Source: Nitrosopumilus maritimus SCM1 | GTDB taxonomy: Archaea; Thermoproteota; Nitrososphaeria; Nitrososphaerales; Nitrosopumilaceae | DNA length: 32,000 nucleotides | Assembly (NCBI RefSeq): GCF_000018465.1 | Contig: NC_010085.1 | Span: forward strand, 1,530,001 to 1,562,000 | Direction of reading: 5' to 3' | In this document: piece by piece, positions 3,425 through 31,949 of the stretch | Layout of the letters: the number at the start of each line of letters is the position of its first letter | Numbering within the stretch: the first letter of the stretch is position 1 | Notes under the pieces: generated by a model | The model's input: only the letters and a program-made list of their open reading frames with translations | Database searches by the model: none | Told to the model about the DNA's origin: nothing | Position numbers and translations under genes: made by a program

Positions 3425-3506
3425 TCCAAATTGAATTTATTTTTTCTAGTAGATAGAAAAAACATAAGGGAGTTTATTTTGTTGTTGTTATTACGTTTAC
3501 GAAAAT

Positions 3507-3542
3507 TAGTACAACAAACAAACAATTTTTCAAATAATTAGA
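3507..3542 (+). promoter_or_regulatory. Bipartite upstream element TAGTACAAC-N20-AATTAGA, 24 nt before ATG 3567
   Basis: Read directly: ttAGTACAAC aaacaaacaatttttcaaat AATTAGA ttagcataaattcgtgatagaaat ATG. Confidence 0.55.
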
Positions 3543-3566: not shown

Positions 3567-4310
3567 ATGCTAAGCATGAGACAAAAATTAACTGCAAAAG
3601 TGAATAGTGAAACGATACAAAAAATTCTAGAATCAACAGATCAATTCAAAACAGTGTCAGAGATAAGTACAGAATGTAAAATTCCAAAAAGTACAACATA
3701 TCGTAAAATTAAATATCTTCAAGAAATAGGAATGCTAGAAGTAACAGGGTTTATTACAGATGGAGGACGAATTAACAAATACAAGTGTGGAAAATTGTTA
3801 AGATATGGAAAGTACAACCCCAAAGTAAAAAAAATTCTTAGTATTATTACATCAAATCCAGGTATATGCTATAATGAATTACAAGAAAGTTCAGGAATAC
3901 CAAATGGCACTCTGAGTCATTATGTATCTAGTATGGTAAAAGACTCAAAAATCATTGTTAAACGTACATCACGTCGTTCATGGTTTTTTCTTCCTAATGC
4001 AAAACCATCAGAAATTAACCTAATAATTAATCTACGTAAAGAGACAGGTAAGAACATTCTATCATTTCTATTATTGAATGGTTCTTCAACATTTTCAGAC
4101 ATACAAAAATCTACAATTAAAGCACCTGCTACAATTTCACTTACCATTACTCACTTAGTAGAACTTGGATTAGTTAGACGCATACCAGGAACTCGTCCAA
4201 AATACGAATTAACAGATAGAGAACTTACCTTTGAATGTATTAAAAAACTTGAGCCAGATACTTCAGATAGACTCAAAGAAAGATTTGCAGACACATTTTC
4301 ATATTTGTAA
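3567..4310 (+). CDS. Transcriptional regulator built from three tandem winged-helix (ArsR/TrmB-like) modules
   Basis: 247-aa ORF with ATG start. It contains three HTH-plus-wing segments: FKTVSEISTECKIPKSTTYRKIKYLQEIGMLEV, ICYNELQESSGIPNGTLSHYVSSMVKDSKIIVKR and STFSDIQKSTIKAPATISLTITHLVELGLVRR. Confidence 0.75.
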   Translation: MLSMRQKLTAKVNSETIQKILESTDQFKTVSEISTECKIPKSTTYRKIKYLQEIGMLEVTGFITDGGRINKYKCGKLLRYGKYNPKVKKILSIITSNPGICYNELQESSGIPNGTLSHYVSSMVKDSKIIVKRTSRRSWFFLPNAKPSEINLIINLRKETGKNILSFLLLNGSSTFSDIQKSTIKAPATISLTITHLVELGLVRRIPGTRPKYELTDRELTFECIKKLEPDTSDRLKERFADTFSYL

Positions 4311-4944: not shown

Positions 4945-4981
4945 ACTAATTGAAGTTGTTAATTGTTTTATGGTTCTACTA
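4945..4981 (-). promoter_or_regulatory. Degenerate element TAGTAGAAC-N21-AATTAGT, 29 nt before TTG 4915
   Basis: Reverse complement reads aTAGTAGAAC cataaaacaattaacaacttc AATTAGT ttaattaattgtatggtgtctaaatttta TTG. There is one mismatch in each half. Confidence 0.35.
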
Positions 4982-4988
4982 TTTTTTG

Positions 4989-6710
4989 TCAAGTCTTAAT
5001 TTGAAAATTTGTAACATATTTTGTTTTAGATAGTACAACAATAGAAATTAAAATAATTGCAAGAATAATTGAAACACCTAATGGAAATTCAGGTGCAACG
5101 TTAACTGCAATCTCAACATATTCATCAGTACCACCAATATTTTCAATTCTGATTGTGACATCACCAGCCTCTTTTTCAACAAACACAAAGTTCTCAAAAG
5201 TTCCTCCACCAGTTGCAAGTCCAGATTTACGGTGAATTTCAGTACCATTCTTGATTAATACAAAATCATAGGCAATATCACCTGTTGTTAAGCCAGTATC
5301 TTTTTGATAAAAACTCATTATGAATTCAGATTCACCAAGACTCAAAATATTTGGAAACCATGTAAGATCAACCAAGTATTTACCATTAGTTGGATTCGAT
5401 GCAGAAACACTTTCAAGCACAATTGGAAATTTGGCATTTTCAGGCTCATTTATCGCTACTAAAAAGTTGACATTTGCCAATGAAAATCCTTCAATTTCAG
5501 ATATTCTGAATTTTATTGTTCCAACATTTTCAGGAGAAAAATTGTATTGAAAACTGTCTGTCTTGCCAGTATTTACGCTGCCAGAAACACGTTTGTTGAA
5601 TATAGTATTTTCATTTTGAATTAGTTCTATCCCATATTCTATATTTTTATTAGTTTTATCAGTGAAAATTTCATCTGTTTTTACAAAAAATGTAACATCT
5701 TCTCCGGGAGTAATTACTTCAGGTTCCCAAGACAGAAAAACTCTATATCGATAATCAGGTGTAACTGCTTCTAATGGAAATCCATCACCTTGACCAGGCC
5801 CTAACTCAAAATACATTTGTGAATCTGATTTTTGTATTGCATGTTCTTTGATTTGATTTAGATCTTCTCTGTTTAATACCATGTGTACTGTTCTTCCATC
5901 AAGAGAGTAATCATCAATTGTAACAACTTCAGCAGGTAATAAAATATCATTTACCTTTGCTTCATATTTTGTGTGAAGTAACTCTGAAAATTCTGGAGCA
6001 ATACGTACTTCTTGATGCACTACGCTTAGTTGCTCAAAGTCTTGATTCCAATCAAAGGGCATAGAAAATGATATCATATTTGAATCAAACTTAAAATTAT
6101 TGACCGAATCAAAATATGAAATTACATTTACGTTATGAGTATTTTCTTTTGAATCGGTTACTTGGAAAGTATTATGTTCAGCAAGACTAATTGCACCAAC
6201 TAACTCCATTCGTTTGTCAAGGAAATTAAAATCAGAGTCGACAGTAAGAATTTCTACTTTATATTCATAAAGACCTCCAGAATCAAAGATAGGTCCAGTC
6301 ATTATCACAGGTTCTGTTGCAGTTCTCATCCATGACTCAATTGCAGGGGATTTATCACCTATAACCTTGATTTCATTTGAATTATCATAGATTGTTTTAA
6401 TTGTTAAATTTCCCAAATCGTCATGAAACAGTTTTCTAAAAATTTGCTTACCGTCTTTTATCATCTCAAATGCATAAGTTACATGTTCTACAGCAGCTTC
6501 ACTTTTTGCATTTTTGAGGTTGATTGTAATGTATCGTTCAGGATCTTCTACATCAAAAACTGAGGGGCTAATATCAATAGATAATATCACATCACGTCCA
6601 TCTAGAGTAACGGGAGGATGAGTTTCTCCACCTAATCCATGTCCAAATGCAGTAGGAACAAAGCTAGAGGCAACAATTCCCATCATAAAAATCAACAAAA
6701 ATTTTTTCAT
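4989..6710 (-). CDS. Secreted surface protein with PEF(G)-CTERM-type sorting signal and two copies of a ~95-aa beta-sandwich-like domain
   Basis: 573-aa ORF with ATG start abutting the upstream stop (6711). The signal peptide ends ..PTAFG|HGLG. The C-terminus is NVAPEF + TM (PLGVSIILAIILISIVVL) + basic tail (SKTKY). Paralog of 13991..15379. Confidence 0.85.
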   Translation of the reverse strand: MKKFLLIFMMGIVASSFVPTAFGHGLGGETHPPVTLDGRDVILSIDISPSVFDVEDPERYITINLKNAKSEAAVEHVTYAFEMIKDGKQIFRKLFHDDLGNLTIKTIYDNSNEIKVIGDKSPAIESWMRTATEPVIMTGPIFDSGGLYEYKVEILTVDSDFNFLDKRMELVGAISLAEHNTFQVTDSKENTHNVNVISYFDSVNNFKFDSNMISFSMPFDWNQDFEQLSVVHQEVRIAPEFSELLHTKYEAKVNDILLPAEVVTIDDYSLDGRTVHMVLNREDLNQIKEHAIQKSDSQMYFELGPGQGDGFPLEAVTPDYRYRVFLSWEPEVITPGEDVTFFVKTDEIFTDKTNKNIEYGIELIQNENTIFNKRVSGSVNTGKTDSFQYNFSPENVGTIKFRISEIEGFSLANVNFLVAINEPENAKFPIVLESVSASNPTNGKYLVDLTWFPNILSLGESEFIMSFYQKDTGLTTGDIAYDFVLIKNGTEIHRKSGLATGGGTFENFVFVEKEAGDVTIRIENIGGTDEYVEIAVNVAPEFPLGVSIILAIILISIVVLSKTKYVTNFQIKT

Positions 6711-7366: not shown

Positions 7367-8377
7367 TTACACAGGACTCGCTTTTCTTTCAGGATAATTA
7401 TAAGTAGGTTTTTTTCCTTTCATATATAGCACTATAACTGCCAACATAATTGCAGGAACTATAATCATTGCTACGGCAATCTCATAATAAAATTGCAAAG
7501 TATCTCGAGGTTGTACAATTTTTTCAGTAGTAGTTTTCTTTTCATAATTTTCATAAACCATAGCTGTAAAATCTCCTAATCTAGCAGTGGCATCAGGTCC
7601 AAGATTGATTTGTGTTTCTGCTACAGAACCATAAGGTTTGATATTTGATATTTTAACAATGATAGGGCCTGGTTCTTCAAATATCCATTGTCGGTAATCC
7701 CCACCCGCACCTGATACTGCGCCTTCATCTTTGTATAACACTTGATTATTTTGTAAAATAGCTATATCATATTCTAACTTTCTTAATGGCTGATCATATA
7801 TTGCATCATAAAAACGATAGATGAAGTTTGTTTTTTCATGGGTTTTAATGACTCGAGGTTCCCATGAAAAATTAATTTCAATTGAACCATCAGGAGTTAT
7901 AAGAAATGTAGGGAACTGTTCATACTTTTTTCCTGTAGCATCATGGGGATAATCAGGAATAAATGGTTTCACAAAAATAATTCCTTCCATCCAGGGATGA
8001 ATTACACAAAAGTAATTGTAATCTCCAGCTTTTTCAAATGTATATGACCAAGACTCGTCTGGCATAAATCTTAAACTATCAAACAGTCCATCAGGCTCAC
8101 CAAGATTCTTGGCATCCATCCAATCAAATCTTCCTGCACCACTGCCACTGGTAACTGTATGCCCTTCTCTATCATCATTTACCCATGTTACAGTATCCCC
8201 TTCAACAATAGATAATTCAGGTGGATCATACCAAACTTTAGCAGGGGTATTTAGTTCAGGATTAAATGCACCAAAAGGAATACTTACAACAAAATCCTCA
8301 GCAAAGGAATTTTGTATGTTTCCTGTAAATAGAAAACTTGTTGCAACAACAAACAAAATGAAAAATTTTTTTTGCAT
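7367..8377 (-). CDS. Membrane-anchored type-1 (blue) copper protein: amicyanin-like cupredoxin domain plus a ~95-aa domain
   Basis: 336-aa ORF with ATG start and signal peptide (FILFVVATSFLFTGNIQNSFA). Cu ligand pattern is EGHTVTSG ... YFCVIHPWMEG (His...Cys-x2-His-x2-Met). The second domain is FSWEPRVIKTHEKTNFIYRF...GAGGDY...ISNI. C-terminal TM is IAVAMIIVPAIMLAVIVLYM followed by KGKK. Confidence 0.85.
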   Translation of the reverse strand: MQKKFFILFVVATSFLFTGNIQNSFAEDFVVSIPFGAFNPELNTPAKVWYDPPELSIVEGDTVTWVNDDREGHTVTSGSGAGRFDWMDAKNLGEPDGLFDSLRFMPDESWSYTFEKAGDYNYFCVIHPWMEGIIFVKPFIPDYPHDATGKKYEQFPTFLITPDGSIEINFSWEPRVIKTHEKTNFIYRFYDAIYDQPLRKLEYDIAILQNNQVLYKDEGAVSGAGGDYRQWIFEEPGPIIVKISNIKPYGSVAETQINLGPDATARLGDFTAMVYENYEKKTTTEKIVQPRDTLQFYYEIAVAMIIVPAIMLAVIVLYMKGKKPTYNYPERKASPV

Positions 8378-8400: not shown

Positions 8401-8436
8401 TCTAATTAATTATCATATTGTTTTATCATTGTACTA
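8401..8436 (-). promoter_or_regulatory. Bipartite upstream element TAGTACAAT-N20-AATTAGA, 23 nt before ATG 8377
   Basis: Reverse complement of 8378..8437 reads cTAGTACAAT gataaaacaatatgataatt AATTAGA gtcaaaatcatgtttttgaacat ATG. Confidence 0.55.
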
Positions 8437-8787
8437 GTGTTTCTCAAATTCTTACACGTGCTTGTCTTACATTGTTTAATGTTTGAGAATTCAAAATATT
8501 CTGTAATGATGTGATTGCAATCGTTTGCACTGCATCAATATTAACCGCTTATGTATTTTGGCATGTTGCGCCTGCAAAAGTTGCTGAAACAGTAAAAATT
8601 ATTGAAATACAGAAGCAGGATGTATTGCAGAAACAAGAGACGGATTTGCAGTAAATATTGGACCATGTGACGCAGAAGAAGGTGATTACATCATGGCAAT
8701 GATAGATACAAAGGTAAAGGAAAGAGAAGCTGCCATGAACACTTAAAATCATAGGATTTTAGGCGTGAGTTTTATTCAAACATACAA

Positions 8788-8997: not shown

Positions 8998-9035
8998 TCT
9001 AATTTAAGACAAGTGAATATTTTATTGTTGTACTA
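8998..9035 (-). promoter_or_regulatory. Bipartite upstream element TAGTACAAC-N22-AATTAGA, 18 nt before GTG 8979
   Basis: Reverse complement reads cTAGTACAAC aataaaatattcacttgtctta AATTAGA ctctacaaaaaaatattt GTG. Confidence 0.55.
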
Positions 9036-9041
9036 GTTTTT
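9020..9041. repeat. 22-nt exact direct repeat, copy 1 (ttttattgttgtactagttttt)
   Basis: Identical to 9350..9371. Both are followed within a few nt by aattttttt. Confidence 0.8.
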
Positions 9042-9349: not shown

Positions 9350-9371
9350 TTTTATTGTTGTACTAGTTTTT
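9350..9371. repeat. 22-nt exact direct repeat, copy 2
   Basis: Identical to 9020..9041. It contains the TAGTACAAC 9-mer on the minus strand. Confidence 0.8.
9357..9365 (-). promoter_or_regulatory. TAGTACAAC copy 83 nt upstream of TTG 9273, without the AATTAGA half
   Basis: Exact 9-mer inside the 22-nt repeat copy 2. The downstream partner is AAATTAATTC rather than AATTAGA. Confidence 0.3.
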
Positions 9372-10578: not shown

Positions 10579-11460
10579 TTATTGTTTTTTGTACAAAAGA
10601 TAGATCCCAGTTAAGATTATCCCCATTGCAATTATTTGGACATGGCTGATTTGTTCTTGCAAAAATATTGCTGCAAAGATAAGACCAAAAACAGAAGATG
10701 TTGAAAAGATCATTATTGTTTTTACAGTTCCAATTCTTTTCAAACCCTGTAAAAATAGAAAGATAGATGCACCAAATCCTGCAATTCCTAAAAGTAGGAT
10801 GTTTGGTAGATGTTCTAATTCTATGTTGATAGGAATTTGCAGTAAAAATACCAATAGCAAAAGAATAGAACCTCCAATTAGAGATTTTAGTTGAACAATT
10901 CTTGCAATATCTAATCGTGTGCTTAGGATTTTGCTTAGATTGTTATCTAAAGCCCAAAACAAAGTGGCTCCAATAATGAGAAAATTTCCTTGATTCCTAA
11001 CATCAAATACAGAATAAGAAAATTCCATATCCGTAGTTACTAGTATCACTCCTGCAATCACTATTGCAACAGCAAGATAACCAATCGTAGTAATTTTTTC
11101 TCTAAACAACAAGATTGCAAGAAATACTGAGAAGATGATTTCCCCATTTAGCAATAATGCAGAATTTGAAGCACTTGAATTTTCCAATCCTGTGAAAAAT
11201 AACATTGGTCCAATTACTGCACCTGAGAAGGCAATAGTTAGCAATAACCATTTGTCTTTGAAAGAAATTGAAGAATTCTTTTTTGAAATTAATGGAGTTG
11301 CAACCAATGAAGCTAGAAAATAGACCAGAGATGCAAGCAATATTGGATGTATTGTAATTAGTGATGGTTTTGCAACAGCAGATACAGAACCAAACAATAA
11401 AGCAGCAAGTATTGCTGAGATATATCCAAACTTTGTTTGGTTAATTGATGCAAAATTCAA
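10579..11460 (-). CDS. EamA/DMT-superfamily transporter (about 10 TM)
   Basis: 293-aa ORF with two five-TM halves typical of duplicated EamA domains. Its TTG start overlaps the upstream TGA as TTGA. Confidence 0.85.
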   Translation of the reverse strand: MNFASINQTKFGYISAILAALLFGSVSAVAKPSLITIHPILLASLVYFLASLVATPLISKKNSSISFKDKWLLLTIAFSGAVIGPMLFFTGLENSSASNSALLLNGEIIFSVFLAILLFREKITTIGYLAVAIVIAGVILVTTDMEFSYSVFDVRNQGNFLIIGATLFWALDNNLSKILSTRLDIARIVQLKSLIGGSILLLLVFLLQIPINIELEHLPNILLLGIAGFGASIFLFLQGLKRIGTVKTIMIFSTSSVFGLIFAAIFLQEQISHVQIIAMGIILTGIYLLYKKQ

Positions 11461-11726
11461 GCAAACTCAATCTGAAAAATACCATGCAGTTGTATATGTA
11501 CTGACTTGAAGCTGCCATTACATTGAAAAAGGCGACGTTTTCCGTGTGTGTGAAGAATCCCTGTAGATATCACTAATTCATGGTCTTCAAGAAGGCGTAT
11601 TATTTTGTAAACAGTAGTAATTTGGATTTTAGTTTCAATAGAAATTTCTTTGACTGACTTTGGAGTTTTTTGAATGCTCAGTAATATTTCGTTACAATAA
11701 TCAAAATGATTTTCTAATTTCATCAT
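11457..11726 (-). CDS. Small winged-helix transcriptional regulator (ArsR-like)
   Basis: 89-aa ORF with ATG start. HTH segment is PKSVKEISIETKIQITTVYKIIRLLEDHELV. It is translationally coupled to the transporter gene. Confidence 0.7.
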   Translation of the reverse strand: MMKLENHFDYCNEILLSIQKTPKSVKEISIETKIQITTVYKIIRLLEDHELVISTGILHTHGKRRLFQCNGSFKSVHIQLHGIFQIEFA

Positions 11727-11746: not shown

Positions 11747-11783
11747 ACTAATGAATTGATGTTGTTGTTTGAGAGTTGTACTA
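11747..11783 (-). promoter_or_regulatory. Related element TAGTACAAC-N22-ATTAGT, 20 nt before ATG 11726
   Basis: Reverse complement reads tTAGTACAAC tctcaaacaacaacatcaattc ATTAGT gtcaaattccattttgtcta ATG. Confidence 0.4.
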
Positions 11784-11869
11784 ATCTCTCCCTAACTGTT
11801 TAATCGTTCAATGATTACCTGTTTAATCTAGAGTTATAATATAGAATCTTTATTACATTTTGATGTTAA

Positions 11870-12606: not shown

Positions 12607-13926
12607 TTAAAATCCAAGAGTTCTATACAAATTTCCTAAAGATGAACTACGTCTTCCTGAAGACAGTAATTTGAGTCGTTTGGATGCTTGTGCTGCAGCT
12701 TCTTTTTTCTTTTTTGATTCCACAACACTAGGCCACCAGTCAGGAAAACAAGAGTTACCAATTAGTTCCGGATCAACTGAAAGTTTGAACTGACTGCCAT
12801 ATCCATGTCTGCCCTTGGATTCTGTCTTTGATACTGCAATACCAGAGTTTACCAATTCAACTAGCATCTCAGAGAACCTCCGATAGGATATCTGCCTAGT
12901 ATCAGGCGATATAATCTTCTGATACTGTTTGAACAGATCAGATGTGCTGTGCCATCCTTCATCATTGATATATGTGAGTCTGGAGAGTGCAGCACATGCA
13001 AGCCTGAAATGATACGAGCCTCCAGAGATGATAGTAGTTATTTGATTTTTTTGCAGTTGGGAGACTGCCTTATCCACGTGTTTTTTTGAAATTTTTTCAT
13101 TTTCAGTTCCTGCAATCTCACCGCTTGTTCTTAGAAGATCAATTGCGCGTCTTGCATCACCGTGCTCTTCAGAACTGATATCAGCGCAATACTGCAAAAC
13201 ATCATCATCTATTTTTTTCAAAAATGATTTTTTTGCTCTATTACGAATTATCTTTAACACATCACTTTGAGAATAAGAATCAAAATAAATCTCAGAAGTG
13301 CCAATTCTCGATACTACTCTGTCATCTAAATTAAATTCAGATAATACCTTGTTTGATATAGTTACAATACACATGTGTCTTTTTAGTGTACGAAGCTTTT
13401 CAACTAGGACAACAATCTTGTAAACAAAGTCCGAAGGCTTGCCTCGTTTGTCATAGAATAACGTATCAAATTCATCAAGACATAATACAAAAATAGAATT
13501 ATCAGATTTTTCAAGTTTTTGTAAAATTAGTTTCTCAAATATTCCAAAAGCATAATTCATGCCCTGAGCGTTTTTGAGATTTTCATGGCCTAGTTCAGAC
13601 AATATCAGATTAATGCATCCAAAAACTGTTTTTGCTTTTCTTAAATTGACATAACAAAAATCAACATCCAAGTTTTGGCAAACAAACTGAACAATGGTAG
13701 ACTTGCCTGAACCACTCCTTCCATAAATTGATACAAGTGGAACAACTAGTCCCTTTTCATAAGATAGCAAGAACTTTACGAGTTTCTTTGATTCAGATTC
13801 CCTTCCAATAATGGAGTTTGTGACAGATAGATTGTCAAGAAATGACTTGTCTGAAAATATAGAATTCTGTGCACGTACATCACCTACAATCTTCTCTAGC
13901 GCTTTTTTGTCCACATAATGTTCCAC
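12607..13926 (-). CDS. cdc6: Orc1/Cdc6 AAA+ replication initiator
   Basis: 439 aa. Motifs are IIGRESE, Walker A GRSGSGKST, Walker B LCLDEFD, and a C-terminal winged-helix segment (SYRRFSEMLVELVNSGIAV). There is an extra ~50-aa basic/Ser-rich tail. GTG start at 13926, with a second in-frame GTG at 13914. Confidence 0.9.
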   Translation of the reverse strand: MEHYVDKKALEKIVGDVRAQNSIFSDKSFLDNLSVTNSIIGRESESKKLVKFLLSYEKGLVVPLVSIYGRSGSGKSTIVQFVCQNLDVDFCYVNLRKAKTVFGCINLILSELGHENLKNAQGMNYAFGIFEKLILQKLEKSDNSIFVLCLDEFDTLFYDKRGKPSDFVYKIVVLVEKLRTLKRHMCIVTISNKVLSEFNLDDRVVSRIGTSEIYFDSYSQSDVLKIIRNRAKKSFLKKIDDDVLQYCADISSEEHGDARRAIDLLRTSGEIAGTENEKISKKHVDKAVSQLQKNQITTIISGGSYHFRLACAALSRLTYINDEGWHSTSDLFKQYQKIISPDTRQISYRRFSEMLVELVNSGIAVSKTESKGRHGYGSQFKLSVDPELIGNSCFPDWWPSVVESKKKKEAAAQASKRLKLLSSGRRSSSLGNLYRTLGF

Positions 13927-17064: not shown

Positions 17065-17074
17065 TCTCTCAATG

Positions 17075-17097
17075 ATATATACAGGTGGGTATACAAA
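17075..17097. promoter_or_regulatory. Two opposed TATA-like boxes in the 41-bp pyrB/pyrI divergent spacer
   Basis: ATATATA (17075..17081) is centred about 28 nt before pyrI ATG 17106. TTTGTATAC on the minus strand (17089..17097) is centred about 29 nt before pyrB ATG 17064. Confidence 0.4.
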
Positions 17098-17105
17098 GTA
17101 TTCTG

Positions 17106-17602: not shown

Positions 17603-17911
17603 CTATTGTCCTAAGATGATAAACATCATAACTATACCGTAGATTGCGATTGATTCGACCATACCTACGAAGATGAACACCTTAGATTGTAAAGCTGGGT
17701 TCTCACTAATGACTGCAAGACCTGCTGCACCTACTTGACCAAGACCAATACCTGCACCAAATGCTGCAAGACCAAATGCTAGACCAGCACCGAGAATCTT
17801 CAAAGAGTCTGAACTTGCTGCTGCATCTCCTTCTGCTGCATATGCAATACTAGTAGATCCTGAAATAGAAATTACAGCTGCTGCCATAAGTAACAAGACT
17901 ATAGTTTTCAT
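17603..17911 (-). CDS. atpK: A-type ATP synthase proteolipid (subunit K/c), single hairpin with signal-like N-terminal extension
   Basis: 102 aa. Helix 1 is GAGIGLGQVGAAGLAVISENP; helix 2 is FIFVGMVESIAIYGIVMMFIIL and carries the carboxylate Glu. GGAGG lies 10 nt upstream of the ATG. Confidence 0.9.
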   Translation of the reverse strand: MKTIVLLLMAAAVISISGSTSIAYAAEGDAAASSDSLKILGAGLAFGLAAFGAGIGLGQVGAAGLAVISENPALQSKVFIFVGMVESIAIYGIVMMFIILGQ

Positions 17912-17921
17912 GGATGATGTG

Positions 17922-17926
17922 CCTCC
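17922..17926 (-). promoter_or_regulatory. Shine-Dalgarno-like GGAGG 10 nt upstream of atpK ATG
   Basis: The minus strand reads ttgaGGAGGcacatcatccATG. Confidence 0.45.
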
Positions 17927-17960
17927 TCAAAGTCCATATTTAAATCATGGTGAGATTGGA

Positions 17961-18092
17961 TTATACTTTTTCTAGTGCTTTCTTTTTGAAAGAACTTAGA
18001 TCGTCTTTAACAGACTGTGCAAAATTTTCATGTTCGCTTTCTAGGGAGTGTTTAGAATCTTCAACAATTTTCTTAATTTCTTCTTTGCCCAT
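17961..18092 (-). CDS. Candidate 43-aa charged helical protein inside the ATPase operon (possibly a short peripheral-stalk H/G-like subunit)
   Basis: Hand translation gives MGKEEIKKIVEDSKHSLESEHENFAQSVKDDLSSFKKKALEKV*. The ATG lies 2 nt after the atpD stop, with GGAGAG in the atpD 3' end. The ORF stops 49 nt before atpK. Confidence 0.5.
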   Translation of the reverse strand: MGKEEIKKIVEDSKHSLESEHENFAQSVKDDLSSFKKKALEKV

Positions 18093-18094
18093 TA

Positions 18095-18724
18095 TTATCT
18101 ACTCTCCATCTTAGCCTTCACTTTTTTTAACTTTGCGAATTCCTCTCTTTCTCTTTCCTCAAGAGTGGCTATGATGAATCTTACTTTTTGTTGATACTGA
18201 GGAATAATGACGTTTTCAAGTGCGTTTAGTAATTTCTGAGTTTTTTCTAATGCTTTTGCAAGACTGAAAATTGAATTTTCATATTCTGCGGCTTTACAGA
18301 TTTTTGGCAAAAGCTCTTTGATCTGTTTTGCTGCTCTATCAATTGAAGAGTTTGTATCAGCAAAACCATATGGCATTGATTTTGTATCTTTTTCAGTAAC
18401 AGATAGTGCAGGAATTTTTACATCAACGACTCTTCTGACATTTACATCTACTTCCATTACTGAAGGAGTGGATTCGGCAACAGAGTCTACAGTTGAAGAA
18501 CCTAATGCCAAGTATGCTTCATTTACAGAACTGTAGATGTCTTGGAGCGGTTCCCATATTCCACCTCTAGCTTTTGAGGCTTCTTCAATCATCTCTTCGA
18601 TGTTTTTTAGGAGAACTTTACGCTTGTCATCTAGAATTTTCTGCACCATTACGGCTACTTGACTAGATTTTTTGTATTTGAAAAGTTCAATTTTTGTTGC
18701 AGCAACATTTTGTCCAAATGACAT
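18095..18724 (-). CDS. atpD: A-type ATP synthase subunit D (central stalk)
   Basis: 209 aa. The coiled-coil N- and C-termini and the N-terminus NVAATKIELFKYKK are typical for A/V-type D. It sits directly after atpB. Confidence 0.9.
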   Translation of the reverse strand: MSFGQNVAATKIELFKYKKSSQVAVMVQKILDDKRKVLLKNIEEMIEEASKARGGIWEPLQDIYSSVNEAYLALGSSTVDSVAESTPSVMEVDVNVRRVVDVKIPALSVTEKDTKSMPYGFADTNSSIDRAAKQIKELLPKICKAAEYENSIFSLAKALEKTQKLLNALENVIIPQYQQKVRFIIATLEEREREEFAKLKKVKAKMESR

Positions 18725-18728
18725 TTTG

Positions 18729-20114
18729 CTACTCTTCCTTGTAATATTGATCTACGTACTTATCTTTGATTTTTGTAATTTCGTTTCTTGGTAGTTTAGA
18801 TACAATCTTCCATAAGATACCTAATGTCTCTTCAATGGTTCTATTCTCATCAGTTGCTTGTGAAAGGAATTCATTTTCAAAGACATCACCGACATCCATG
18901 TATTTCAAATCGATTTCAGTAAGTCCTGCTTTACCTACAATTCCTGCAAGTGCTCTGACTTCTTGTGCTCTAGAATATGCATCATAAACTTGATTTGAAA
19001 TTTCACCATGATCTGCTCTGGTACTTCCTTCACCAATACCGTCTTTCATCAGTCTTGAGAGACTCATCAAGATGTTTACTGGTGGATAGACTCCTTGTCT
19101 GAACAAATCTCTACCAAGTACAATTTGTCCTTCTGTAATGTAACCAGTAAGGTCAGGAATTGGGTGAGTAATATCATCAGAAGGCATTGACAAGATTGGA
19201 ACTTGTGTAACACTACCTTTCTTTCCGTTTAGTTTTCCTGCTCTTTCATAGATTGTTGAAAGGTCAGTGTAAAGATAACCAGGATAACCTTTTCTTCCAG
19301 GTACTTCTTCTCTTGCAGCACTAATCTCTCTGAGTGCTTCTGCATAGTTTGTCATATCTGTAAGAATAACTAGTACGTGCATTCCTAATTCAAATGCCAA
19401 ATATTCAGCGACAGTTAATGCAACACGAGGAGTAATAATTCTCTCAATTGCAGGATCGTCTGCTGTGTTTAAGAAAAGAACACTTCTTTTTAGAGCGCCA
19501 GACTCTTCAAGACTTCTTCTGAAATATTCTGCTTCACTGTATTGCACACCAATTGCTGCAAAGACTACAGCGAAATCATCTTGTGTACCAATTACACTTG
19601 CTTGTCTTGCAATTTGAGCTGCTAAGAGGTTGTGTGACATACCAGAACCTGAAAAGATTGGAAGTTTTTGTCCTCTTACAAGAGTAATCATTCCATCAAT
19701 TACTGAAACACCAGTTTGGATGAAGTCTTTTGGATATTCACGTTGTTCTGGGTTCATTGGTTCACCGTTAATGTCAATAAATTGATCAGCAATAGGATCT
19801 GGCAGTCCGTCTTTTGGTCTGCCTAAACCATCAAAGACTCTACCAAGTACTTCTCTTGAAACTGGCATCTCCATAACTTTGCCGACAAATTTTGCATTTG
19901 TTGCAGCAATGGATAATCCAGTAGTTCCCTCAAAGACTTGGACGATTGCTTTACCGTTTCCAACTTCGAGAACTTTACCTAATCTTCTTTCACCGTCTTT
20001 AGTTTCAACTTCAACTAATTCGTCAAATGCTGCATTCTCAACATCATCTACAATAACTAGAGGACCTTTGATTTCTGCAATCTTACTGTATTGAACTCCG
20101 CCTTCTGCTGTCAA
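18729..20114 (-). CDS. atpB: A-type ATP synthase subunit B
   Basis: 461 aa with [11 protein letters not shown] and [24 protein letters not shown] start overlaps the atpA stop as TTGA, with GGAGTG upstream. Confidence 0.97.
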
Positions 20115-21889
20115 TTTGATACTTTCACTCCTGTAATTGATTTGAATTCTTCTTGCATGTCTGCATCTAGTTGATCAAGTTTTGGCATCTCATCATCTTT
20201 GACATCCATTCTTGCTTTGAGAAGTGTTGTGATACTTTTCATTGCACGAATATCTGCAAGAGGAGTTCCTTCCTTGATTGCTTGTTGACCTTTCTTGTAA
20301 AAGTCAACTAGTAATTTCATTAACTTGTATTGTTTCTCTGGGCTACAATAAGTGTCAACATCATCAAATGAGTTTTGTTGTAAGAGACCAATCTTTACCA
20401 TTCTTGCAACTTCAAGAATTAATTTTTCTTCATCTGGAAGTGCTTCAGGTCCTAAGAGTCTGACAATTTCTTTTAGTGTATCTTCTCTTTGTAAGACACC
20501 ATAAACTTCACTTCTAAGACTTAGCCAGTCTTCGTTGATGTTCTCACCCCACCACTTTGCAATGTCTGCAAGATAACCAGAATAGCTGTTCATCCAGTTA
20601 ATTGATGGATAGTGTCTAGAGTATGCTAGTTTTGCATCCAAAGCCCAGAATGTTTTGATAAATCTCATGGTGTGAGTTGTAACTGGTTCTGTAAAGTCAC
20701 CACCAGATGGTGAAACAGCACCAATCAAAGTTACAGAACCATCACGGTCTGGACTTCCTGCTGCTCTAACACGACCTGCTCTTTCATAGAATTCTGCTAA
20801 TCTTGATGCAAGATATGATGGATAGCCTTCTTCTGCTGGCATCTCTTCTAGTCTACCACTCATCTCTCTGAGTGCTTCGGCCCATCTACTTGTTGAATCT
20901 GCTACAAGTACAACGTCTTTACCCATATCTCTGTAATATTCTGCAATTGTGACACCAGTGTAGATACTTGCTTCTCTTGCTGCTACCGGCATGTTACTGG
21001 TATTTGCAACAAGTACTGTTCTGTCCATGAGTGGTTTTCCACTACGTGGGTCTTTGAGGTGTGGGAACTCCACAAGTACTTCTGTCATTTCGTTTCCTCT
21101 CTCACCACAACCGATGTAAACTACAACTTGGGAATCTGCCCATTTTGCAATTTGGTGAAGTGTAACAGTCTTTCCTGTTCCAAATGCACCTGGGATTGAA
21201 CCTGTTCCTCCTTTTGCAATTGGGAAGAATGTGTCAATTACACGTTGTCCGGTGAGTAGTGGAACTGTTGGATCGTATCGGTTCTTGTATGGACGTGGTT
21301 TTCTTACAGGCCATCTGTGATACATTTTGAGTTCGACAGTTTCACCTTCTCCCTCAGTTGTTGCTAATACAGTTTCTAAATCATAATCTCCTTCTGATAC
21401 TAAGTTTGAAATTTTTCCACCTTTGTGGTCTGGTGGAACCATGATAGAGTGCTCAATAAGATCAGTTTCTTGAACAACGCCAATTACATTTCCTGCTGCT
21501 ACTTCATCACCATTACTAACTGATGGGACAAAGTGATATTTTTTGGCCATGTCAACTGGAGTAGTTGTAATACCTCTTCCGATAAAGGAACCAGAAGCTT
21601 CTGATAATGCTCTTAGTGGTCTTTGAATTCCATCATAAAGTTGTCCAATAATTCCAGGACCTAACAAAACACTAAGTGGGTTTCCAGTACCAATTACTGG
21701 TTCACCTGGTTTTAGTCCACTGGTTGATTCGTAAACTTGAATGAATGCTACATCTCCGGTTAATCTAATTACTTCACCGACTAATTTTGAATCGCCGACA
21801 GTTACAGTTTCATACATTTTTGCTTCAGACATACCGTCTGCTCTAACTGCAGGTCCACTTACCCAAACAATTCTACCTTGAGCTGCCAT
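20111..21889 (-). CDS. atpA: A-type ATP synthase catalytic subunit A
   Basis: 592 aa with Walker A GAFGTGKT and [20 protein letters not shown]. The length is normal, so there is no intein-sized insertion. Confidence 0.97.
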
Positions 21890-21890
21890 C

Positions 21891-22487
21891 TTATTCTCCT
21901 ACCCCGAATTTGGATGCAATCTCTTTCCTTATTAAAGGCTTCAGACGTTCAATTCTTGCATCGATCGTATTGTCAAATGTCATTGCACCATCTTTTGATT
22001 TTACAACAACTCCACCAAGACAATCAATTGTATCAGAAGATAATTCAGATCCTGGGAATTGTGACAAAGTTGATTGAACTACATCTTTGTCTTTGGCATT
22101 TGTAGTAACTGTAATTTCTGAAGTTCCCAAAATTTGGGTTGCTTCTGTAATCATTGTTTTAATCAAATTAGAATAATCACCACTGCGATCAGCATTTGCA
22201 ATTTGTTCAAGTGCTTTTGAAAATACCTTATCGACTGCATCTTCTAATGCCATTAATTGCTTATTTCTAGCCTCAATATCGGCACTTCCCATGATTTGTT
22301 TTTCAATTTTATCGGCTTCTTTCTTTCCATCTGCGATGATTTTATCAAATTCTTGTTCTAGTTTAGGAACAGAATCATCAAGGGTTTTCAGAGATTCATT
22401 TAGGGCAGATTCAACGTTTGAAATGACGGACTTTTCAGTTTGTTCAAGAATTTTGCTAATAGTGGTCTCTAAAGCAGAATTTGCCAA
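21891..22487 (-). CDS. atpE: A-type ATP synthase subunit E (peripheral stalk)
   Basis: 198 aa with a long charged N-terminal helix and a globular C-terminus. The stop lies 1 nt before the atpA ATG. TTG start, with no in-frame ATG in the first ~65 codons. Confidence 0.85.
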
Positions 22488-22503
22488 TGAGTCGCGTAAA
22501 TCC

Positions 22504-22524
22504 GTAATAGATTTTAATGTTTGG
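22504..22524 (-). promoter_or_regulatory. atpE-operon promoter element CCAAACATTAAAATC-ta-TTAC; TATA-like core ends 22 nt before TTG 22487
   Basis: Reverse complement of 22504..22524 is CCAAACATTAAAATCTATTAC, which matches the element before atpC at 19 of 21 positions. Confidence 0.6.
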
Positions 22525-22544
22525 GAATTGCAATTCAGAAAGAT

Positions 22545-22564
22545 ATTAAAATCAAAGGAGTTAC
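22545..22564 (+). promoter_or_regulatory. atpI promoter core ATTAAAATC (+TTAC), ending 23 nt before TTG 22577
   Basis: agatATTAAAATCaaaggagTTACcgttggattatcTTG. It has the same 9-mer core and spacing as the atpE and atpC units. Confidence 0.5.
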
Positions 22565-22576
22565 CGTTGGATTATC

Positions 22577-24676
22577 TTGGTAGTAGCCGATCTGAAACTT
22601 GGAAGTGTAATTTTACCAAGAAGCGAGTCTCCAAGAGCAATTTCCAGACTAACAGAGTTTGAATGGTTTCATAAAATCGATACTGAAAATGACTTAGTCA
22701 CACCAGAAATCGATGATCTTCTGTTAGAGGCACAAAAAACCTACCAATCAATTGATGATGTAGTTAAAGGACTAGGAGTCCCACCAACTGTAGGAATTCT
22801 AGAGATTTTGTTCAAAGGAACTATGATCAAAAAGAAGGATTATGAGATTGGAGAAATTGAGGACTTGGTAGAGGATCTCAAAAAGAAGACTCCATCAGTT
22901 ATTGACGAGCCAGCAAAACTTCTAGAAGAGCAAGCAGACACAAAACGAGGAATTGAAGAATATCGTTCATTAAAAGAGACTCTCGAAATTGCTAAAAAAC
23001 TCAACATTGATCTTTCAGGATTTGGATTGATGAAGTATTTCTACACAAATCTCTTTGTGATAGACTCTGGAGACTATGAAGAAATTAGCAGAGCATTAGA
23101 AGGCATTACATTTTACAAATATGATTTAGAAAGTAAAGACAAAGCCGCAGTCTTGGTAATTTGTGGAATTGATGATTCAGAAAAAGCACTAAAAGTACTT
23201 AGAGGATTCAACGCAAATCCATTTTCCATTCCTGATGGCATGTCACAGATTCCATCAGAGGCATATGCCACTGCTGAGGCAAAACTAAAAGAACTTACAG
23301 CAAAACAGGCACAAATTGCAAAACAGCTTGCAAAAATCACAAAGAACATCAGACGCGATATTCTGGTATTACACGAAGAAGCACTTGTTGCAAAAGATGT
23401 TCTTGAGACTTTGAGAAAACCAGGTGGAACTAAACATTTTGCACTTATCCAAGGATTCATCCCAAGTAAGATGGAAGAGAAGTTCAAGAATATTACAAGT
23501 CAATGGACTTCAGTAACTGAAGAGATTACAGATCCTAAACATCAAGAACAAGTTCCAACATTATTTGATAATAAAAAATTCGTTAGAACTTTTGAAGTAA
23601 TCACAGAAAGTCAAGGAATTCCAAGAAAGGGAGAAGCAGATCCTACACCAATGATTGCCCTAATGTGGCCAATTTTCTACGGACTGATGTTTGCAGATAC
23701 AGGTCACGGATTGCTCTTGATGGGAATGGGATTATTATTCAAATTCAAAGGACAAGGTAATCTCTCTAGATGGGGAATGCTCATTGCAATTTCTGGAGCA
23801 GCATCTGCTATTGCAGGTGTTGGTGCAGGAGAAGCGTTTGGATATCACATATATTACTTTGAACCATTCAAGGGACTATTAGCAGAAGGAGGACCACTAT
23901 ACCCAGTTAGTTTCATAGTTGGTATCCTTAGTGTTGCAGAATTATCATTTGAACAAGTAATCAATATTCTCAAAGTTTCATTGTTCATTGGAATCATCCA
24001 TTTGGTTTGGGCAATGATTCTCAGAATTAGAAGATTAGCTAGAGAAGGTCACAAGATTGTCATGTACTTGGAAGCAATTCCAAACATCACACTCTATGGC
24101 GGTATTGTAGTTATCATGATGTGTGCAATCGGTTCACAATATGATGTAATGAACATGTATTCCAAAGTCCACACAGAAGCTGTTCCTTGGGTTACAATAT
24201 TCCTAGGAGATTGGGCACAAGTTTGGATTGTTACAAGAATTGCAGTAGTAATTGTAATTGCATCTATGGCAATGATGATGGTTGGAGGAATAATGCATGC
24301 AAAGAAACATCCAGAGGATGGAGGTTCGGCGGCAAATGTCGTAATGGAAGTATTCCTTGGTAAGACAGTAGAAAGTTTAGCTCACACAATTAGTTATGCT
24401 CGACTCGGAATTATGCTACTGGTGCACGCAGCACTGTTGCTGACAGTAAATAATGCATTCAATTCACTTGGCGGTTCCGAATCATTTGGTGCATGGGCAA
24501 TGATTATTGGAGGAAACTTGGGAATCATGATGATTGAAGGATTGATTGTGTATATCCAGTCACTCAGGTTGCACTTGTACGAATACTTTACAAAATGGTA
24601 TGATGGTGGTGCACAACCATTTAGACAAGTTAGACCAGAATTGATTTACAACCAATTCATTTGGAAAAGAAAATAA
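22577..24676 (+). CDS. atpI: A-type ATP synthase subunit I (a-subunit, stator/proton channel)
   Basis: 699 aa with a soluble ~340-aa N-terminal half followed by multiple TM helices. The stator-arginine context LAHTISYARLGIMLLVHA matches the A/V-type SY.RL....L.H motif. TTG start. Confidence 0.92.
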   Translation: MVVADLKLGSVILPRSESPRAISRLTEFEWFHKIDTENDLVTPEIDDLLLEAQKTYQSIDDVVKGLGVPPTVGILEILFKGTMIKKKDYEIGEIEDLVEDLKKKTPSVIDEPAKLLEEQADTKRGIEEYRSLKETLEIAKKLNIDLSGFGLMKYFYTNLFVIDSGDYEEISRALEGITFYKYDLESKDKAAVLVICGIDDSEKALKVLRGFNANPFSIPDGMSQIPSEAYATAEAKLKELTAKQAQIAKQLAKITKNIRRDILVLHEEALVAKDVLETLRKPGGTKHFALIQGFIPSKMEEKFKNITSQWTSVTEEITDPKHQEQVPTLFDNKKFVRTFEVITESQGIPRKGEADPTPMIALMWPIFYGLMFADTGHGLLLMGMGLLFKFKGQGNLSRWGMLIAISGAASAIAGVGAGEAFGYHIYYFEPFKGLLAEGGPLYPVSFIVGILSVAELSFEQVINILKVSLFIGIIHLVWAMILRIRRLAREGHKIVMYLEAIPNITLYGGIVVIMMCAIGSQYDVMNMYSKVHTEAVPWVTIFLGDWAQVWIVTRIAVVIVIASMAMMMVGGIMHAKKHPEDGGSAANVVMEVFLGKTVESLAHTISYARLGIMLLVHAALLLTVNNAFNSLGGSESFGAWAMIIGGNLGIMMIEGLIVYIQSLRLHLYEYFTKWYDGGAQPFRQVRPELIYNQFIWKRK

Positions 24677-29816: not shown

Positions 29817-29944
29817 TGAATTTATCGAAATTGGATTTTATTTAAGGGTTGGAGACTCAAGAATGTCTAGAAAAGTAAATTATTATATTTTAGTATATTC
29901 TGATAGTAACATAAAATATGGAAATTATGTTAAGGTGATCGCAA

Positions 29945-30610
29945 ATGGGAAAATCAGAGACCAAACTAGCAATTTTTGATACATTCAAAACCAAAGACGA
30001 AGAGTTAACTGGAGAAGCACTACGACAAAGAGCAATTATTGGAATCCTTGCAGGAGATGCAAATCCTGCTGAAAGAACTAGAACAGGGATATCACAAAAT
30101 ATGGCAAAAAAACAAGGAATTGCCTGGAAAAACATCTACTCAGGGATTTTTCGAGATTTGGATGAAATTCTGCTACCAATGGGGATTGCAGAGGAAGACG
30201 GCAGATTACCTCTTCAGAGAGGTCCCAAGGCCCTTCAAGAAAAAGGAATTCCATATTATCATCTCACAAAAAAAGGGATTTTGATCGCTCTTTCAATTAG
30301 CGATATCAAGAATAGAGAAAAATTGCTAAAAGAATTTTTCTCAAAGTCTGAATCTGAAGAAAAAGAGTTTGAAAAGATTCTATCTAGTCTATTAAAGAAT
30401 AGCCCAAAATTTGCATACTCTATTTTTCAAAAATATGTCAAGGCATTTTGCGATAATAAAATTAAGGAATTACTCCCATTTGATCTGACAAAATTGAAGG
30501 AGATTTCAGATGAATCATTGGAAATCCAAAAGGAGATTCTTGTAGCGTTTGTGGAACTCTCAAAGCAGGAAAAAGAGGATGCCATCAAATTTCTAGACAA
30601 AATCACTTAG
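29945..30610 (+). CDS. Hypothetical protein with a winged-helix-like N-terminal half and a charged helical C-terminal half
   Basis: 221 aa with ATG start. ISQNMAKKQGIAWKNIYSGIFRDLDEILLPMGIAEE...YYHLTKKGILIA looks like HTH plus wing. No family recognised. Confidence 0.65.
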   Translation: MGKSETKLAIFDTFKTKDEELTGEALRQRAIIGILAGDANPAERTRTGISQNMAKKQGIAWKNIYSGIFRDLDEILLPMGIAEEDGRLPLQRGPKALQEKGIPYYHLTKKGILIALSISDIKNREKLLKEFFSKSESEEKEFEKILSSLLKNSPKFAYSIFQKYVKAFCDNKIKELLPFDLTKLKEISDESLEIQKEILVAFVELSKQEKEDAIKFLDKIT

Positions 30611-30631: not shown

Positions 30632-30652
30632 CCAAACATTAAAATCCGTTAC
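30632..30652 (+). promoter_or_regulatory. atpC promoter element CCAAACATTAAAATC-cg-TTAC; core ends 23 nt before ATG 30670
   Basis: gCCAAACATTAAAATCcgTTACtcataaacaattttcaaATG, read directly. Confidence 0.6.
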
Positions 30653-30669
30653 TCATAAACAATTTTCAA

Positions 30670-31704
30670 ATGGGCAAGAACGTCTATGCATCAGTAAAGT
30701 CATACAGCCAAAGAGGAAAATTACTCAGTAGGGCTGATTTTCAGACACTGGCAGAATCAAGAGATCTTGATGAATTTATGACCAGAATAAAGAACACCAT
30801 TTATGGTGATTCAATTAATGATGTTCAAAAACCATATACTTCACAAGGTATTGAATCAGCATTTAGAGGACATTTGGCTGATGTCCATTACTCCATTGCA
30901 AAAACTGCTGGCGATTCTGATATTCTTGATGCATATTATATGAAGTTCATAATTTCAAATCTAAAATTAATACTAAAAGGCAAGGTTTTAGGTAAATCAC
31001 AAGAAGAGATTGAGAATCACATCAATCTACGTGCAGAAGAATTAGTTAAACAACGAGATATCATAATCAAATCCCTTGTTGCAAAAGATCTTGAAGAGGC
31101 AGTTGCAAGTCTAAATTCAGTTCAATTTGGAGATGAGATTGCAAAGGCTGCAACACTTTACAACGAAACAAAAAACATCCAAGTCTTTGACACGTATTTT
31201 GATAAAATTTTGTACCAACAACTAGGACGAGCTTTGAAGAATACAAGAGATAGAGATGTCATAAAGATTGTCGGAATGGATGTTGACTTTTACAATCTTC
31301 TTAGTGTGATTAGAGGAAAATTCTGGGGATTAGAAGAATCACAAATTCAAGATTTGATTGTGACTCAAACTCCAACTGTCCCAAGAGAACTTCTTGGAAG
31401 AATGATGGCAGCAGGTTCAGTCAGAGATGCACTAAATGAGCTTGCCACAACCAAATACAAAGACATGATTCCACAGATGGAAAATGAGTTAGATGCAGTT
31501 GCCGAATTTGAAAGAGCATTTGAGATGAGCATTTATCATTCATCTGCCAGAGCATTTACCAAGATGTTTAGTTTTGCAACAATCATAGGAATCACAAAAC
31601 TAACGGGCTTTGAAGTAAGGAATTTGGCTGCAATTGCATATGCAGTAGAGCAAAAAATTCCTACAGAAACAACAATGTCAAAATTGATTCTTGAAGAAGA
31701 ATAG
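30670..31704 (+). CDS. atpC: A-type ATP synthase subunit C (V-type d homolog)
   Basis: 344 aa, all-helical. The N-terminus YASVKSYSQRGKLLSRADFQTLAESRDLDEFMTRIKNTIYG fits the A/V-type C(d) pattern. It shares its promoter element with atpE. Confidence 0.85.
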   Translation: MGKNVYASVKSYSQRGKLLSRADFQTLAESRDLDEFMTRIKNTIYGDSINDVQKPYTSQGIESAFRGHLADVHYSIAKTAGDSDILDAYYMKFIISNLKLILKGKVLGKSQEEIENHINLRAEELVKQRDIIIKSLVAKDLEEAVASLNSVQFGDEIAKAATLYNETKNIQVFDTYFDKILYQQLGRALKNTRDRDVIKIVGMDVDFYNLLSVIRGKFWGLEESQIQDLIVTQTPTVPRELLGRMMAAGSVRDALNELATTKYKDMIPQMENELDAVAEFERAFEMSIYHSSARAFTKMFSFATIIGITKLTGFEVRNLAAIAYAVEQKIPTETTMSKLILEEE

Positions 31705-31712
31705 ATCTGAAA

Positions 31713-31949
31713 ATGATAAAATTTCCAAAGAAGAAAAATGAGATAACAACAGAGACAGTAATCAATACTATTTGGGTCAGTGCATTTATGGCCATGATAT
31801 TTTCATTGCCACCTTTAGCATTATTTTTGGGAATTTACTTTTGGGCAGGTGAATTAGCAATAGGCGCAATTGTTGGCTTTGGAGTACATTTTGTAACATT
31901 AGCATTTGCAGGCAGAATCTCAAAATTTTTGACCAACATAATGAGTTAA
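31713..31949 (+). CDS. Small two-TM membrane protein co-oriented 8 nt downstream of atpC
   Basis: 78 aa with ATG start and two hydrophobic helices (VSAFMAMIFSLPPLALFLGIYFW, AIGAIVGFGVHFVTLAFAG). Confidence 0.6.
   Translation: MIKFPKKKNEITTETVINTIWVSAFMAMIFSLPPLALFLGIYFWAGELAIGAIVGFGVHFVTLAFAGRISKFLTNIMS

Follow-up and report, generated by a model that had tools for sequence, protein, structure and literature searches.

Four predicted BRE/TATA core promoters of the split A-type ATP synthase genes in Nitrosopumilaceae, and an element common to atpE and atpC

The atp genes and their neighbours

The window analysed is a 32,000-nt stretch of the Nitrosopumilus maritimus SCM1 genome with a G+C content of ~34%, in which no tRNAs and no Rfam families were found. 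Pfam assigns atpK, atpD, atpB, atpA and atpE to the minus strand and atpI and atpC to the plus strand, with an Amt transporter gene between atpI and atpC. The divergent atpE and atpI genes are separated by a spacer of 89 nt (22488-22576). Judged from the sequence, the A-type ATP synthase genes are read from four predicted promoters, which serve atpE-A-B-D-orf43(-K), atpK, atpI and atpC(-p78) (Table 1). Species-representative genomes were scanned with AtpI, giving 80 Nitrosopumilaceae loci with AtpI identities of 75-98%, the best match (98%) lying in a Nitrosopumilus MAG, and the gene order atpK-D-B-A-E / atpI ... sulfurtransferase, amt / p221, atpC, p78 is conserved in these loci. Wang et al. 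(2019, PMC6863869) described a similarly split thaumarchaeal A-type cluster, in the order pyrB, pyrI, atpK-D-B-A-E, atpI, sulfT, amt and atpC. There the cluster is called an 'operon' and the word promoter is absent (0 occurrences), whereas four promoter-bearing units are resolved here; unlike in that study, a conserved 43-aa ORF is also found between atpD and atpK.

The 43-aa ORF (MGKEEIKKIVEDSKHSLESEHENFAQSVKDDLSSFKKKALEKV) starts 2 nt past the atpD stop codon and ends 52 nt before atpK. At the amino acid level it is conserved in almost every Nitrosopumilaceae locus that covers the gap between atpD and atpK, as well as in Nitrosotenuis and Nitrososphaera, with lengths of 41-52 aa. According to Wang et al. 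(2019, PMC6863869), neutrophilic AOA have no known homologue of subunit H/G. The charged helical peptide is a candidate for this subunit, though it is much shorter than known H/G and has no significant match in Pfam or PDB sequences. Another small ORF, p78, lies 8 nt past atpC and contains a long hydrophobic stretch, as judged by eye; its position is kept in most loci, it matches no family, and the next gene in relatives is Cas4-like, as in Wang et al. (PMC6863869). The 221-aa protein p221 is encoded directly upstream of atpC and divergently from amt, a placement kept in Nitrosopumilaceae and Nitrosotenuis. Pfam, NCBIfam and PDB profiles were uninformative for p221 and gave no family match, and a single-sequence AlphaFold model was poor (pLDDT 41.6); the predicted secondary structure resembles a winged helix followed by a helical domain. 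A conserved inverted repeat, TAACATA-N12-TATGTTA, is located upstream of the p221 gene.

Several other features of the window were recorded. The pyrB and pyrI genes are divergent and their promoters overlap. For pyrI, ATG 17106 is a likelier start than GTG 17085 of the ORF list: it is retained in 34 of 34 species and has the TATA sequence ATATATAC 23 nt upstream, and the pyrB TATA TTTGTATAC falls inside the first codons of the GTG-extended pyrI frame. The window also encodes an Orc1/Cdc6 replication initiator (NCBIfam TIGR02928, E 1.6e-62), and a replication origin may lie in an adjoining intergenic region. Six genes, namely those of two HTH regulators and a plastocyanin-like copper protein and three small ORFs, have a ~20-nt motif, AAAACTAGTACAACAATAAAA, 40-100 nt ahead of their start codons. 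Exact matches to TAGTACAAY comprise seven sites, the six copies of this motif and one intragenic site, while 31 matches are found with at most one mismatch vs 16 expected. Its probable role is that of an operator or UAS for a small regulon.

Table 1. Features of the window and of related loci (locus numbers are given for positions outside the window)
Feature	Position	Strand	Details
Unit atpE-atpA-atpB-atpD-orf43-atpK	17603..22487	-	Pfam, upstream table, conservation
Unit atpI (single gene, divergent from atpE)	22577..24676	+	Pfam V_ATPase_I; synteny in 80 loci
Unit atpC and 78-aa ORF, probably co-transcribed	30670..31949	+	Pfam vATP-synt_AC39; conserved atpC-p78 adjacency
Predicted atpE core promoter	22504..22524	-	BRE-like CCAAAC 22519-22524; TATA ATTAAAATC 22510-22518; downstream TATTAC
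atpE start TTG	22485..22487	-	22 nt past 9-mer; preceding base a conserved A, likely TSS
Predicted atpI core promoter	22537..22553	+	BRE-like AGAAAGAT 22537-22544; TATA ATTAAAATC 22545-22553
atpI start TTG	22577..22579	+	23 nt past 9-mer
Predicted atpC core promoter	30632..30652	+	CCAAAC, ATTAAAATC (30638-30646), CGTTAC
atpC start ATG	30670..30672	+	23 nt past 9-mer; ATG in species examined
Predicted atpK (c subunit) core promoter	17933..17949	-	CATGATTTAAATATGGA; 24 nt before ATG 17911
atpE conserved block			tTcCCAAACATTAAAATCtATTAt; 77 species
atpC conserved block			gatcgCcAAACATTAAAATC.gtT, also given as CgCcAAACATTAAAATC; 54 species
atpI conserved block			TcaGAAAGATATTAAA(a/c)tc; 80 species
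atpK conserved block			tcAtCATGATTTAAATAtGGA; 46 species
Fourth 9-mer copy	6225-6233		intragenic
12-bp palindrome	22525-22536		GAATTGCAATTC
SD-like GGAGG of atpK	17923-17927	-	between TATA and ATG
atpB start TTG	20112-20114	-	
43-aa ORF (orf43)	17964-18092	-	between atpD and atpK
Corresponding ORF, L201	13729-13860		
Corresponding ORF, L203	13958-14116		
Corresponding ORF, L204	46-192		
p78	31713-31949	+	78-aa ORF
p221	29945-30610	+	221-aa protein
p221 upstream region	29817-29944		inverted repeat
pyrB/pyrI overlapping promoters	17065-17105		
Orc1/Cdc6 gene	12607-13926	-	
AAAACTAGTACAACAATAAAA copy	3497-3525	+	
AAAACTAGTACAACAATAAAA copies	4966-4987, 8421-8442, 9020-9041, 9350-9371, 11765-11785	-	
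HTH regulator genes	3567-4310, 11457-11726		preceded by AAAACTAGTACAACAATAAAA
Plastocyanin-like copper protein gene	7367-8377		preceded by AAAACTAGTACAACAATAAAA
TAGTACAAY, intragenic	5031-5039		
Nitrosotenuis 44-nt tract regions, L204	4579-4654, 9947-10000		upstream of atpE and atpC
Nitrosotenuis 44-nt tract regions, L206	1579-1654, 6947-7000		upstream of atpE and atpC

Predicted core promoters, spacing and start codons

The initial annotation had pointed to a 9-mer, ATTAAAATC, in front of atpE, atpI and atpC, and direct reading together with pattern search gives the same positions and the same gaps of 22, 23 and 23 nt to the three start codons. With the intragenic copy there are four occurrences in the window vs 1.36 expected, and 7 of 100 shuffles reach four, so that the number of 9-mers by itself is unremarkable. 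An A/T-rich octamer that follows a purine-rich hexamer, with the start codon at a fixed 21-26 nt, leads to the reading of an archaeal core promoter with a BRE (TFB-recognition element) and a TATA box. The distance matches that between TATA and the transcription start in archaea, where an AT-rich 8-bp TATA box is centred ~26-27 bp upstream of the TSS. On this basis the repeats are read as core promoters of the usual archaeal kind, made up of BRE and TATA, at which TBP and TFB are expected to bind.

Alignments of the regions upstream of atpE, atpC, atpI and atpK across the family reveal four sharply bounded conserved blocks in otherwise variable intergenic DNA. Column identity of the 15-mer that makes up BRE and TATA is 0.94-0.99, compared with 0.41-0.66 in the flanks (0.41 in the upstream flank of atpE), which shows that the element is conserved relative to its surroundings. 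The purine-rich BREs, CCAAAC at atpE and atpC and AGAAAGAT at atpI, directly abut the TATA box and are conserved, the latter in 69 of 80 species. The atpI TATA has the form ATTAAA[A/C]nn, the exact 9-mer being present in only 29 of the 80. The promoters are retained in genomes where insertions have moved atpE and atpI over 1 kb away from each other. The stretch between the BREs of the two divergent promoters is a perfect palindrome of 12 bp, GAATTGCAATTC, which was considered as an operator; it was rejected, being confined to the closest relatives with no family-wide conservation.

Between the TATA box and the start codon the sequence varies freely while its length is fixed at 21-26 nt in the four atp promoters (46-80 species). 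The atpE gap is 22 nt in 64, 23 nt in 12 and 21 nt in one of 77 species, the atpI gap is 23 nt in 69 and 22 nt in 10 of 80 species, and the gaps of atpC and atpK range over 22-25 nt and 24-26 nt, respectively. A fixed length around a variable sequence gives indirect support to the earlier proposal that the mRNAs of atpE, atpI and atpC would be leaderless or nearly so, with starts predicted from the spacing. The further suggestion that an identical leaderless spacing sets the ATPase units apart did not hold up, since it recurs at other genes of the window: atpK falls within the same 21-26 nt, as do amt (22 nt from CTTAAATA), the sulfurtransferase gene (21 nt from AATTTAGA), pyrB (24 nt) and pyrI (23 nt, from ATG 17106), and amt, the sulfurtransferase gene, pyrB and pyrI each have a conserved block of their own. 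By this comparison the spacing is a property of the genome and not a link between ATPase units.

The distribution of Shine-Dalgarno (SD) motifs is in line with a known archaeal pattern. In Sulfolobus and haloarchaea, first genes are leaderless and SD motifs are found at internal genes (reviewed in PMC7531240); likewise, atpE, atpI and atpC of the window have no GGAG-type motif in the 22-23 nt before their starts and have their TATA box at the corresponding distance, while SD-like GGAG precedes the unit-internal atpA and atpB. At atpB a conserved SD-like GGAGT is located inside the end of atpA, with which atpB overlaps by 4 nt, and the start codon is TTG in 47 of the 47 species compared. A GGAG-type motif between TATA and ATG is present at atpK and at Nitrosotenuis atpC and atpE. 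Such a motif would not be expected on purely leaderless mRNAs; the explanation put forward is read-through transcription in the one case and hitch-hiking on a converted segment in the other (see below). The SD-like GGAGG of atpK would be usable on read-through transcripts, and its position suggests dual expression of atpK, with a leaderless mRNA from the internal promoter and SD-dependent translation of read-through atpE-D transcripts, in keeping with the c subunit's high copy number.

The atpE start codon is TTG in 71 and ATG in six of 77 species, always at the same position, and that of atpI is TTG in 78 and GTG in one of 80. In-frame stop codons close both frames just upstream (TAA 22547-22549 for atpI). 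The TTG starts annotated for the two genes are well corroborated by this conservation of position in 77-80 species and by the upstream stops. Directly ahead of the atpE TTG stands a conserved A, itself preceded by C; this initiator-like CA implies that the mRNA probably starts A-UUG. At atpI a purine (A or G) is found ~3 nt upstream of the TTG. Both mRNAs probably carry a leader of 1-3 nt that starts at the purine. In S. solfataricus, UUG is reported to be avoided on leaderless mRNAs with 0-nt leaders, probably as RNA polymerase prefers a purine at +1, whereas TTG is conserved here at atpE and atpI; all mRNA types nevertheless make use of AUG, GUG and UUG (PMC7531240). The initial remark that UUG is unusual for leaderless initiation is therefore right to the extent that it is mildly unusual, but it is not anomalous, given that UUG occurs on all mRNA types and that the SD-led atpB also starts with TTG.

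No mapped transcription starts or leaderless statistics for AOA were found in the literature searched. The same design was proposed for other AOA genes: the TATA/BRE of amoA, amoC and amoX lies 23-24 nt upstream of the ATG, and the starts of transcription and translation possibly coincide (Bartossek et al. 2012, PMC3379541), an inference also made for nirK (Park et al. 2014, PMC4010524). The resemblance to the atp promoters extends to the placing of TATA and neighbouring BRE 23-25 nt ahead of the start codon, to the inferred coincidence of the two starts, to a separate promoter for each gene of a linked set and to promoter blocks conserved across marine AOA. In contrast to amo and nirK, the same 15-bp BRE+TATA is found here at two units of one enzyme complex that lie apart, two first codons are TTG rather than ATG, and in one lineage the promoter and start codon were copied wholesale. 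The four-unit atp promoters are thus a fresh and well-conserved instance of a familiar element, whose spacing design was already described for AOA amo genes in 2012.

The element common to atpE and atpC

The 21-mer CCAAACATTAAAATCNNTTAC occurs in the window only in the atpE and atpC core promoters, with 0.08 occurrences expected and none of 100 shuffles reaching two, and the pair was also found independently by a repeat finder (I17). The element that the two genes have in common reads CCAAACATTAAAATC-NN-TTAC. Among 153 promoter-region pairs in the window, the atpE/atpC pair matches at 15 of 15 positions of CCAAACATTAAAATC and the next best pair at 12 of 15. Column by column, the 15-mer is conserved at ~0.99 identity in front of atpE (77 species) and of atpC (54 species) alike, with flanks at 0.41-0.65, and it is kept in genomes with GC-rich intergenic DNA (L069-L073, L078). 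The exact 13-mer AAACATTAAAATC is present at 78 atpE and 53 atpC promoters, and the 1.27 Mb of syntenic Nitrosopumilaceae DNA from 80 genomes that was searched has no other copy. Metagenomes were scanned with a pattern that requires the 15-mer and then ATG[A/C/T] at 21-25 nt, which excludes normal atpE and atpC. The 80 matches listed consist only of chance matches in bacterial or phage-like DNA and of a Nitrosopelagicus-like atpC variant; those that are thaumarchaeal are atpC only, and the other long ORFs are bacterial or phage-like, a weak negative result. A de novo motif search of ~24 first-gene upstream regions of the window returned only a noisy TATA-like motif and was set aside. The claim that the atpE and atpC sequences match far beyond a generic TATA box is vindicated family-wide by these comparisons, and the two genes share a true common promoter element.

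One way to account for such identity is that CCAAACATTAAAATC is simply the optimal BRE/TATA of Nitrosopumilaceae, on which strongly expressed genes converge, with nothing specific to the ATPase. The TATA type ATTAAA is indeed common to the atpE, atpI and atpC promoters, the amt promoter resembles CCAAACATTAAAATC in part (CCAACCCTTAAATAA, 11-12 of 15 positions), and AOA promoters of such geometry are general (PMC3379541). However, ~18 other promoter regions of the window all match atpE or atpC at 12 or fewer of the 15 positions, no more exact 13-mers appear in the 1.27 Mb taken from the 80 genomes, the thaumarchaeal matches among the 80 metagenome stretches listed are confined to atpC, and atpI and atpK, which are needed in the same complex, have kept different BREs over an equal evolutionary span. 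On the promoters sampled, convergence on a general optimum is considered unlikely.

The initial annotation had described one element as common to atpE, atpI and atpC and had offered it as an explanation for the co-regulation of the split units. Full sharing of the 15-mer stands for atpE and atpC; atpI has only the TATA in common with them, and that as the exact 9-mer in just the minority of species given above, next to a BRE of its own. The fourth unit, atpK, had been missed and has an unrelated conserved promoter with neither part. An element shared by two of four units is not enough to account for co-regulation of the complex as a whole, and the proposed explanation is overstated in that general form. 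In a narrower version, the extended element (BRE, TATA and the xxTTA after it) would be recognised by one particular TFB/TBP paralogue or by a TATA-overlapping factor, in a sigma-factor-like manner, coupling atpC to atpE-A-B-D. Thaumarchaeota encode several TFB paralogues, which counts for this possibility, as do the extension of conservation to 6 nt upstream and ~5 nt downstream of the TATA at both genes and the apparent restriction of the motif to the atpE and atpC units in the sampled DNA. The idea that the BRE/TATA sequence itself can define a co-regulated set has a parallel in haloarchaeal promoters specific for TFB/TBP paralogues (e.g. hsp5, PMC2396416), unlike which paralogue specificity is here a lead only. 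If this reading were true, promoter identity and not operon linkage would tie the detached atpC to atpE-A-B-D, in a regulon made from general transcription factors whose copies are kept matched by occasional gene conversion. Against it, just two of the four atp units carry the element, Nitrososphaera does without sharing it, the element has no dyad symmetry and the factor that would read it is hypothetical. The rare deviations are also not mirrored in the partner promoter: atpE of L205 has ATTCAAATC and atpE of L011 has AAAATG, each with atpC unchanged. A dedicated factor is a slightly less likely proposal than a generic optimum, and dedicated co-regulation of atpE and atpC is unproven.

More distant relatives give some clues to the origin of the two copies. 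Relatives recovered by homologue search with AtpC of the window all had at least 80% identity, and more distant ones were reached through a 50%-cluster library and further searches. In Nitrososphaera (L201, L203) the genes are in the order atpE-A-B-D-smallORF-K-I with atpC convergent. In front of atpE stands CAAAAGGTTAAAATC, a relative of the Nitrosopumilus element, and in front of atpI the likewise related AGAAAGGATTTTAAAG, AGAAAGG-ATTTTAAAG also being seen there; the atpC promoter is unrelated (TTTTTATAAAG or TTTTTAAGTAG). Sharing of the element thus does not extend to Nitrososphaera, and the presence of a related sequence at atpE with a different one at atpC indicates that the atpE-type promoter is older and that the atpC copy was derived within Nitrosopumilales.

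In two Nitrosotenuis uzonensis-like loci (L204, L206), the regions upstream of atpE and atpC are identical over 44 nt, CCAAACATTAAAATCCATTTGAAATAGGAGCCAAAACAATGGGT, and the identity runs through ATGGGT, that is, the start codon and the next codon, so that the N-terminus of AtpE is also altered to MGV. A related sequence at atpC of a sister Nitrosotenuis lineage (L207, L208) indicates that the tract was copied from atpC onto atpE. By comparison of these sequences, the tract is an unambiguous gene conversion of promoter plus start codon. It is direct evidence, at the level of sequence, that gene conversion moves sequence between the atpE and atpC promoters and that either can stand in for the other functionally; the start position assigned here gains support from it too. 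Where both upstream regions were recovered from other genomes (53), the identical run of atpE and atpC is 12-17 nt. Outside the core, no general excess of similarity within genomes was found (14.35 matches within vs 13.95 between genomes). Flanks that are no more alike within than between genomes imply that conversion is rare or occasional rather than ongoing and that the long-term identity is held by selection.

The Nitrosotenuis tract is at the same time an argument for regarding the identity as a mere footprint of duplication or gene conversion with no selective meaning, in that a 44-nt conversion did occur there. This is the least credible of the readings, and we give it almost no weight: a 15-mer that is ~99% identical at both genes next to flanks of only 41-65%, the GC-rich L069-L073 and L078 included, requires purifying selection and excludes a neutral relic.

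Taken together, the observations are probably best explained by four independent BRE/TATA promoters that give leaderless mRNAs or leaders of 1-3 nt, with the atpE and atpC copies being paralogous, identical through purifying selection and expected to have the same basal strength. Each BRE and TATA would start transcription at, or 1-3 nt before, the first codon of its unit. The atpE-type promoter would most likely have been copied to atpC by duplication or gene conversion, after which strong purifying selection on TBP/TFB binding would hold CCAAACATTAAAATC at both genes. The identity of the two promoters thus most likely reflects common descent combined with strong purifying selection. The same basal promoter at atpE and atpC would probably result in similar transcriptional output, and a matched basal output of the two units is plausible.

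Implications for ATP synthase expression in ammonia-oxidising archaea

The current understanding of archaeal transcription is not overturned by these promoters. To our knowledge, genetic manipulation of ammonia-oxidising archaea is still impossible, which makes conserved promoter blocks one of the few handles on how the expression of the central machinery is set. The analysis provides exact predicted core promoters and start codons, conserved across the family, for four A-type ATP synthase units. These may be used for the correction of start-codon annotation, for the interpretation of metatranscriptomes and for the choice of promoters for in vitro transcription or future genetic tools. Nitrosotenuis offers a clean natural experiment in which one promoter and start codon replaced another. 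As judged from the promoter predictions, the so-called atp operon of these archaea would really be several leaderless units.
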